Shown here in pieces: positions 421 through 1,241 of a DNA stretch of 1,241 bases (its first letter is position 1; the number at the start of each line of letters is the position of its first letter). Origin of the DNA: Escherichia coli. Its GTDB lineage: Bacteria > Pseudomonadota > Gammaproteobacteria > Enterobacterales > Enterobacteriaceae. The position numbers and the translations under genes are program-made. Location: the NCBI RefSeq assembly GCF_003334765.1, contig NZ_QOWT01000080.1, one strand, 5' to 3'. The notes under the pieces were generated by a model. The model saw only the letters and a list, made by a program, of their open reading frames with translations. It searched no databases and was not told the DNA's origin.

Positions 421-1241
421 ATGCGCAAACAGCCTGATGCCCTTCGCTACGACCGCCAAACTATTTTTGGCCTTGTCCGTGAGCGTCCGATCGACATTCA
501 CAAAGATCCCGTAGCACTGAACAAATATATCTGCGAATACCTGACGACAAAGGGCGTGTTTGAGAATGAAGAAACAGACCTGGGCACTGTTGATGTTCTC
601 CAGTCATCAGAAACACAAACTGATGCAGTGGAAACTGAGGTATCTGATATCCCAAAAAATGAAACCGCGCCGGAAGCTGAACCATCTGTAGAGCGTGAGG
701 GGCCGTTCTATTTCCTCTTCGCAGATAAGGACGGAGAAAAATACGGTCGCGCAAACAAACTCTCTGGTCTGGATAAGGCACTGGCTGCTGGCGCCACTGA
801 AATCACAAAAGAAGAATATTTTGCCCGAAAAAATGGCACATACACGGGCTTACCGCAAAATGTAGATACCGCTGAAGATTCAGAACAACCAGAGCCGATA
901 AAAGTTACCGCTGACGAAGTAAACAAAATTATGCAGGCAGCCAATATCAGCCAGCCTGACGCCGATAAGTTGCTTGCTGCATCACGTGGTGAATTTGTTG
1001 AAGGGATTAGTGACCCGAATGATCCGAAATGGGTTAAGGGGCTCCAGACCCGCGATTCTGTGAACCAGAACCAGCATGAATCGGAACGGAACTACCAAAA
1101 AGCGGAACAAAACAGTCCAAATGCGTTACAAAACGAGCCAGAAACGAAACAGCCTGAACCAGTAGCGCAACAGGAAGTGGAAAAAGTCTGCACCGCCTGC
1201 GGTCAGACCGGCGGCGGCAACTGCCCTGATTGTGGCGCGGT
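421..1241 (+). CDS. recE: Partial CDS with no stop in the window: acidic protein with a CxxC-x7-CxxC zinc ribbon, probably the central region of a prophage RecE-like (exonuclease VIII) protein. Likely 5'-truncated by the IS insertion, so possibly a pseudogene or gene remnant.
   Basis: Frame 1 is open from 316 to 1241; the first in-frame ATG is at 421. Translation [51 protein letters not shown]...[22 protein letters not shown]. The frame checks out at every 60-bp line start and the composition is coding-like. There is no Shine-Dalgarno upstream of ATG 421, which sits 17 bp from the IS terminus. The recE assignment rests on remembered similarity to the region upstream of the RecE nuclease domain and is not verified. 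Confidence 0.55.
   Translation, partial: [273 protein letters not shown]
1189..1233 (+). other. CxxC-x7-CxxC zinc-ribbon-like motif ([15 protein letters not shown]) within the plus-strand CDS
   Basis: Four Cys codons at 1189-1191, 1198-1200, 1222-1224 and 1231-1233 in the CDS frame, separated by a Gly-rich loop. Confidence 0.6.

Follow-up and report, generated by a model that had tools for sequence, protein, structure and literature searches.

Insertion Sequences and a Truncated Exonuclease Gene

The window, by which we mean the whole stretch of 1241 bases of E. coli DNA that was analysed, is made up of the ends of two insertion sequences and part of a 5'-truncated exonuclease pseudogene. 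On the minus strand it carries the end of an IS30 element with the first 15 nt of the transposase gene (window 1–77, assigned from the RefSeq CDS and the terminal inverted repeats) and the left end of an IS600 element (IS3 family) with the 5' part of orfA (window 78–404, assigned from the translation and RefSeq). These are followed on the plus strand by the pseudogene (window 405–1241, assigned from RefSeq, PHROG 2082 and PF16473), which covers residues 289–567 of an 823-residue protein and runs past the window end into a DEDDh exonuclease domain. The segment that concerns us here lies within the pseudogene, at window 540–1180, and encodes 215 aa. Forty complete E. coli genomes contain the window at 100% identity, and the junction between IS600 and the exonuclease gene is present in 40/5426 genomes. 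In strain ML35 the window lies inside a degraded Qin-type lambdoid prophage, with xis, int and rspB just downstream.

The two insertion sequences form a nested IS-in-IS junction. In ML35 (locus L001) the RefSeq CDS for the IS30 transposase spans 6864–8015, with window base 1 corresponding to L001 position 8001; the IS30 terminal inverted repeats at 6857 and 8077 delimit a complete 1221-bp element, inserted in the IS600 orfA and flanked by a 2-bp duplication of the target, GT. The orfA ATG is at window 340 and the interruption by IS30 at 78, and the window holds the first 88 codons of orfA; the translation from 340 to 1 reads MSRKTQRYSKEFKAEAV...LERDILKKAT and then passes into IS30-derived residues. 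RefSeq annotates the copy at the window as a "transposase, missing C-terminus" and that across the IS30 element as an "IS600 family transposase, missing N-terminus". The IS600 terminal repeat ends at window 404, an end that we assigned from what we take to be the IS600 terminal sequence, and the remnant exonuclease frame begins exactly at this IS600 end, at window 403–405.

The exonuclease coding sequence adjoins the end of IS600 and has no counterpart to the 5' part found in intact alleles, and its RefSeq entry is that of a pseudogene ([quoted passage not shown]). The whole remnant amounts to 535 aa, co-linear with residues 289–823 of an intact gene (L002:5000–7471) from which it differs at one residue, and it matches positions 289–822 of the 823 in PHROG 2082; this near-identity to intact alleles points to a recent insertion. 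On its far side in ML35, IS600 adjoins partial DUF977 and hypothetical genes, without the exonuclease 5' part, and a comparison of L001:5529–8404 with L002:611–5864 showed that cI/cro-ydfABC-dicB-ydfD and exonuclease codons 1–288, all found in the intact prophage, are missing from ML35. This gap suggests a deletion of several kb associated with IS600. All exonuclease sequence 5' of codon 289 has been replaced by IS600, which was itself hit by IS30 later. The exonuclease frame is open back into the IS600 end (window 322–420), as far as a stop at 319–321, and a read-through fusion from the IS600 end into the exonuclease frame is possible in principle; inspection of window 322–420 by eye turned up no start codon accompanied by a credible ribosome-binding site. 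Both the layout of the window and the truncation of the exonuclease gene by IS600 are established. The gene is dead in this genome, and the segment therefore probably does nothing there; what follows concerns the intact protein.

The Intact Gene and Its Relation to ydfE

At the loci examined, intact 823-codon alleles always lie between dicB-ydfD and xis-int. The intact protein consists of an N-terminal YdfE_N/YdfE_C domain, a central region of ~300 residues, and a C-terminal DEDDh (Rv2179c-like) exonuclease domain. Pfam YdfE_N and YdfE_C match the product of a relative that is 87% identical (P0121); they correspond to the N-terminal 340 residues, and the segment under study falls outside both families. 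Judging from these Pfam family names and from the prophage position, the gene appears to be the intact form of ydfE, the pseudogene of the K-12 Qin prophage, with which it shares both gene family and location. The K-12 ydfE presumably retains an N-terminal fragment only, whereas all that survives in the window lies downstream of residue 289. PF16473 matches the exonuclease domain at residues 642–813, outside the window (E-value 2e-67), and the DEDDh motifs DLET, FDN and HNALDDA are legible in the remnant translation. A Foldseek search of the full-length model against the PDB identified RNase T (4e-5), a match of the exonuclease-domain fold, and no other match at E ≤ 0.001. The Pfam scan returned no family over residues 340–635 of the intact protein, and the segment, compared by sequence with PDB chains, gave no match at E ≤ 1.

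The segment also occurs at 98–100% identity in the phage records PhiR42_1, HannyBb and Tritos. The region is an ordinary one, in that the gene is already annotated and its sequence is identical to RefSeq and phage proteins. A literature search on the Rv2179c-type prophage exonuclease found no paper. DnaQ-like 3'-5' nucleases have recently been noted in lambdoid Rec modules (Zheng et al. 2025, PMC12315714), and they resemble the present protein in being DEDDh exonucleases encoded in the early-left region beside xis/int; the passages of that paper that were consulted make no mention of the central linker or of its modules.

Composition and Predicted Structure of the Central Region

The initial annotation had described window 540–1180 as an acidic, Gln/Pro-rich, low-complexity coding segment poor in hydrophobic residues, and quoted two peptides, both of which we found in the frame-1 translation from window 421. 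The ATG at 421 from which its residues were counted is internal Met295 of the intact 823-aa protein, and residues 40–254 of that ORF are residues 334–548 of the intact protein; the intact numbering is used throughout. Over the 215 aa of the segment, E/D/Q/N/P/T/K make up 54.9% of residues against the ~33.5% of an average E. coli composition (binomial p = 1e-10), and the segment also differs in this respect from the folded domains that flank it in the protein (Fisher p = 3e-4). Its net charge is −23, and hydrophobic residues are indeed few (V/I/L/M/F/W/Y/C 21%, compared with 32–33% in the flanking domains).

The acidic low-complexity bias is real; however, it is not uniform but is carried by three stretches, all on the plus strand, which we designate LC1, sp2 and LC2. 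LC1 (residues 340–387, window 556–699) is an acidic spacer rich in Thr, Glu, Ser and Val, with 60% EDQNPTK and a net charge of −13; sp2 (residues 438–473, window 850–957) is a short acidic spacer with a weakly predicted helix and 61% EDQNPTK; and LC2 (residues 502–548, window 1042–1182), a Gln/Asn/Glu/Pro-rich spacer, reaches 68%. The description as Gln/Pro-rich suits only the 47 residues of LC2, where Q+N amount to 32%, and not the rest of the segment, proline being 7% overall. Residues 388–437 and 474–501, at 40% and 43% EDQNPTK respectively, have an ordinary composition (p = 0.2). The polar and charged bias and the depletion of hydrophobic residues that are typical of a disordered linker are thus present and are confined to residues 340–387, 438–473 and 502–548. 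Outside the window, residues 582–635 form an acidic tail with a net charge of −11. At the DNA level, Tandem Repeats Finder reported no tandem repeat in the window and a microsatellite-type array was rejected as the source of the low complexity; the sole repeat is a weak, imperfect 21-nt duplication at window 1068–1109.

We ran AlphaFold2 twice, once on the intact protein, from an alignment of 55 sequences (full-length model), and once on residues 380–600 with 61 trimmed homologs (segment model). In the full-length model the N-terminal domain was confidently predicted (pLDDT 80–92) and included helices over residues 286–338, the last helices of the domain occupying residues 289–339 in the window (405–555, plus strand; pLDDT 88–91). 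Values below 50 were assigned to residues 344–384, 438–462, 465–476, 498–550 and 556–638, with LC1 at 25–27 and LC2 at 27–33 in the full-length model; in the segment model LC2 rose to 36–48 and the sp2 helix (residues 458–469) scored 53–69. Residues 388–437 (window 700–849, plus strand), which we call module B, are predicted by AlphaFold2 to form a small folded beta-beta-alpha-beta-alpha domain: residues 390–431 were modeled as a beta-hairpin, helix, strand and helix with pLDDT 72–84 in the full-length model and 85–89 in the segment model. Module C (residues 474–501, window 958–1041, plus strand) consists of a helix and a motif common to RecE; it scored 47–56 in the full-length model and 69–76 as a helix-plus-loop at residues 475–499 in the segment model. 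The start of module D (residues 549–567, window 1183–1241, plus strand) carries a zinc-ribbon-like CxxC-x7-CxxC motif that extends to residue 581 beyond the window. The Cys4 motif is present and conserved, although its match to Pfam DZR is weak (E-value 0.33) and its pLDDT in the segment model is ~50; module D is a putative zinc binder. The structure of module C and the zinc ribbon is uncertain, their pLDDT being only 50–76.

The disorder prediction thus divides the flexible linker that the initial annotation had proposed: LC1, sp2 and LC2 lie mostly below a pLDDT of 50, in keeping with it, but module B folds confidently. Stable structure is predicted at residues 388–437 (pLDDT 72–89) and, as a helix, at residues 474–501 (up to 76), and disorder does not extend along the whole segment.

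Conservation and Rate of Evolution

A search of 1.84 billion cluster representatives identified only 126 relatives, and the family is therefore narrow. Per-column conservation was taken from local phmmer alignments; a further alignment (A3), in which the latter half of module B is misplaced for some of the short sequences, was used for modules C and D only. The most conserved element is the motif of module C, which is near-invariant (90–100% identity per column among 57 cluster representatives) and is recognizable, amid different surroundings, in distant proteins of 600–970 aa with 40–55% overall identity. Module B is strongly conserved, with the consensus ER.GPFY...G.K.GRANK..gL...l..G..EI..EEy.ARK.GT., and so is the CxxCG...CPDCGAVMGDATYQETF of module D, the four Cys of which, together with GAVMGDATYQETF, are 80–100% conserved. 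In the acidic tail the motif DPEEMEGAEHPH is 60–90% conserved, and spacer columns range from 0.1 to 0.8 in the local alignments. Six distant homologs (P0179, P0148, P0242, P0174, P0193 and P0236) have two extra motifs in their disordered regions, PEV.N.GGG.FS.EGLM and SNEVEKTE, neither of which is found in the protein of the window.

Values of dN/dS were calculated from eight intact alleles of E. coli, one of which (L010) is mosaic in its N-terminal half. The spacers gave 0.69 (LC1), 0.65 (sp2) and 0.54 (LC2) and the acidic tail 0.67, while the modules gave 0.27 (B), 0.13 (C) and 0.11 (D) and the exonuclease domain 0.21. The fast evolution that had been anticipated for the segment is therefore a property of its spacers, at 0.54–0.69 against 0.21 for the catalytic domain, and not of its modules, at 0.11–0.27, which are constrained to at least about the same degree as that domain; the conservation of single columns shows the same pattern. 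Neither of the two features that the initial annotation named as refuting it, stable structure and strong conservation, runs throughout the segment, but both are found in ~40% of it, and the initial account is thus right in part.

Length Variation

Strain-to-strain differences in length, which the composition had led the initial annotation to expect, turned out to be the exception. All 30 of 30 sampled genomic matches (84–100% DNA identity, at least 96% coverage) had the same base span as the query, five diverged intact alleles besides the L002 reference encode exactly 823 aa, and 91 of 120 close protein clusters (76–99% identity) have no indel in the segment. The other 29 include 18 clusters with one additional residue at position 345 in LC1, two independent tandem duplications of 7 aa in LC2 (RNYQKAE and QKAEQNS), and one kind of 14-aa deletion, also in LC2; the remaining class was a frameshift-ridden fragment. 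Nearly all of the indels seen fall in the low-complexity stretches LC1 and LC2, LC2 being the hotspot, and the stretch from module C to the zinc ribbon is exactly 78 aa long in 38/42 distinct variants. The LC2 indels are flanked by short direct repeats (CGGAAC at window 1082 and 1103, and GCG at either end of the deletion), and such junctions fit an origin by slippage.

Over greater distances the lengths do diverge: across subfamilies the module order A-B-C-D is fixed and the combinations of modules are variable, with spacers of 48–72 aa between A and B, 0–34 aa between B and C and 28–69 aa between C and D, a two- to three-fold difference in spacer length. A tendency to indels is thus seen in the spacers and in deep comparisons. 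An 811-aa allele from O145 (L005:500–2935; also P0032) has deletions of 4 aa and 8 aa in the acidic tail (residues 588–604), which makes the tail a second indel-tolerant stretch, outside the window. A 527-aa variant (P0140; 99% identical) lacks the 296 residues 369–664 through an in-frame deletion that fuses LC1 to the middle of the exonuclease domain. We considered this protein as a natural linker-less variant and rejected it, as the deletion also takes the first catalytic motif; its loss makes the variant uninformative on whether the linker is dispensable.

A Block in Common with RecE

A BlastP search aligned residues 474–627 of the exonuclease with residues 453–592 of Rac RecE (1e-60, ~75% amino acid identity, one 14-aa gap). 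The DNA identity to recE is 77–100% per 10 codons across residues 474–621, a megablast search matched window 961–1086 to recE at 89–91%, and the flanks of this block are unrelated or only weakly similar. The two proteins therefore share a central region, located in both just upstream of the nuclease domain, that consists of module C, a Q/N/P/E spacer, the CxxC-x7-CxxC ribbon followed by GAVMGDATYQETFDEE, and the acidic tail. They differ in that RecE has a PD-(D/E)XK 5'-3' nuclease (PF06630), whereas the protein studied here has a DEDDh 3'-5' exonuclease, and in that RecE has no module B or LC1, has an unrelated N-terminal domain, and has an LC2 that is 14 aa shorter. We rejected an identification of the present protein as RecE: our Pfam scan gave no match to PF06630, and the NCBIfam RecE model NF007259 scored 258.7 bits over profile positions 317–600, below its cut-off of 1269.

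Among 55 family members examined by Pfam scan, 24 carry Exonuc_VIII and 14 the Rv2179c-like DEDDh domain, from which it follows that the same cassette is found ahead of two nucleases that are unrelated and of opposite polarity. The low-complexity spacers, or their ends, are where the mosaic boundaries fall, and from these sequence comparisons the block from module C through the tail appears to behave as a portable cassette. The shared region resides in the N-terminal part of RecE, to which PMC11611040 assigns no known function, and RecE truncated so as to exclude this region is recombination-proficient (PMC11611040); the cassette is accordingly not essential for nuclease action. The passages of that paper that were consulted do not mention the conserved modules.

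Several phage records (H66, H68, H83–H86 and others) are labeled "exodeoxyribonuclease VIII". H66 and H68, at 98–100% identity, are the Qin-type DEDDh protein, while some of the more distant records may be genuinely RecE-type; since the RecE family model rejects the protein, the label probably stems from the central block shared with RecE. A RecE-type central block at 71% identity was also found in Actinobacillus phage vB_Apl-pPE4 (H91), for which a Pasteurellaceae host is listed, an unexpected host, since the rest of the family is confined to prophages of enterobacteria.

Interpretation of the Central Region

Taking these results together, we consider it likely that the segment is the middle, interdomain part of a nuclease from a lambdoid prophage, built like beads on a string from spacers and constrained modules, and carried here in a dead gene. 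LC1, sp2 and LC2 would be intrinsically disordered flexible tethers, acidic or Q/N-rich, that drift in sequence and in which slippage at short direct repeats may from time to time add or remove residues. They would separate the folded mini-domain B, the helix-plus-motif C, and the Cys4 zinc-ribbon-like D with its acidic tail. Modules B, C and D may serve to dock the nuclease on DNA or on a partner supplied by host or phage, while the spacers would give reach and allow domain swapping and indels to be tolerated without damage to a fold. The C-terminal half of RNase E is a disordered scaffold with embedded recognition "microdomains" that have experimentally defined ligands, and it offers a parallel, by analogy and not homology, for long low-complexity disorder broken by short conserved segments. 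Beta-clamp- and SSB-binding motifs were considered for modules C and D, and no convincing match was seen.

An alternative, which we regard as unlikely, is that the acidic stretches are a DNA mimic or autoinhibitory tail that folds onto the nuclease or the zinc ribbon and gates access to DNA. Acidic tails of SSB, T7 gp2.5 and HMGB1 have been described as gating DNA access in this way, and the strong negative charge of LC1 and of the tail, together with the conservation of the tail motif and a DNA identity to RecE that reaches 100% per 10 codons, would be in keeping with such a role; however, LC1 and the tail evolve at a dN/dS of 0.67–0.69, and the AlphaFold2 output, consisting of pLDDT values only, gave no sign of docking.

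Less probable still is that the whole of window 540–1180 is a simple, flexible, fast-evolving linker that does no more than connect domains. The composition bias and the net charge of −23 agree with it, as do the lack of any Pfam family or relative of solved structure and the pLDDT below 50 over more than half of the segment, but it is already contradicted for residues 388–437 and 474–501 by the confident fold of module B in the segment model and the near-invariance of module C, and it also sits poorly with module dN/dS of 0.13–0.27 and with a length that is constant in most alleles.

It is likewise improbable that modules C and D are only apparently conserved, as the product of a recent horizontal exchange of DNA blocks among E. 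coli prophages and not of selection on function, for although the 89–91% identity to recE over window 961–1086 between unrelated flanks and the narrowness of the family would suit such an exchange, the two modules have a normal dS (0.32–0.37) with a dN of 0.04, and module C is recognizable in the distant proteins described above. Recent recombination between prophages, as opposed to selection, may nevertheless account for some of the apparent conservation that C and D show between the present gene and RecE; the dN/dS of 0.11–0.13 within Qin-type alleles argues for selection on both modules.

Returning to the beads-on-a-string reading, we tentatively extend it to suggest that module C, the Q/N spacer, the zinc ribbon and the acidic tail, joined in some lineages by module B, might be a portable recruitment cassette carried on both 5'-3' RecE-type and 3'-5' DnaQ-type nucleases and docking either of them on a common partner of host or phage origin or on a common DNA structure. 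We regard this extension as possible, though doubtful.

Alone, the finding is a minor one, as disordered linkers are commonplace, and what it adds is modest: a map of modules and spacers, and a remark on mis-annotation, since the label "exodeoxyribonuclease VIII" on a DEDDh 3'-5' exonuclease implies the wrong polarity and the wrong fold. Modules B, C and D lie outside all Pfam families and are candidate handles for the N-terminal part of RecE, which is of relevance to recombineering. If the recruitment cassette proposed above is real, it would provide a testable role for this part of RecE and could explain why full-length RecE surpasses the nuclease-only fragment in linear-linear recombination.
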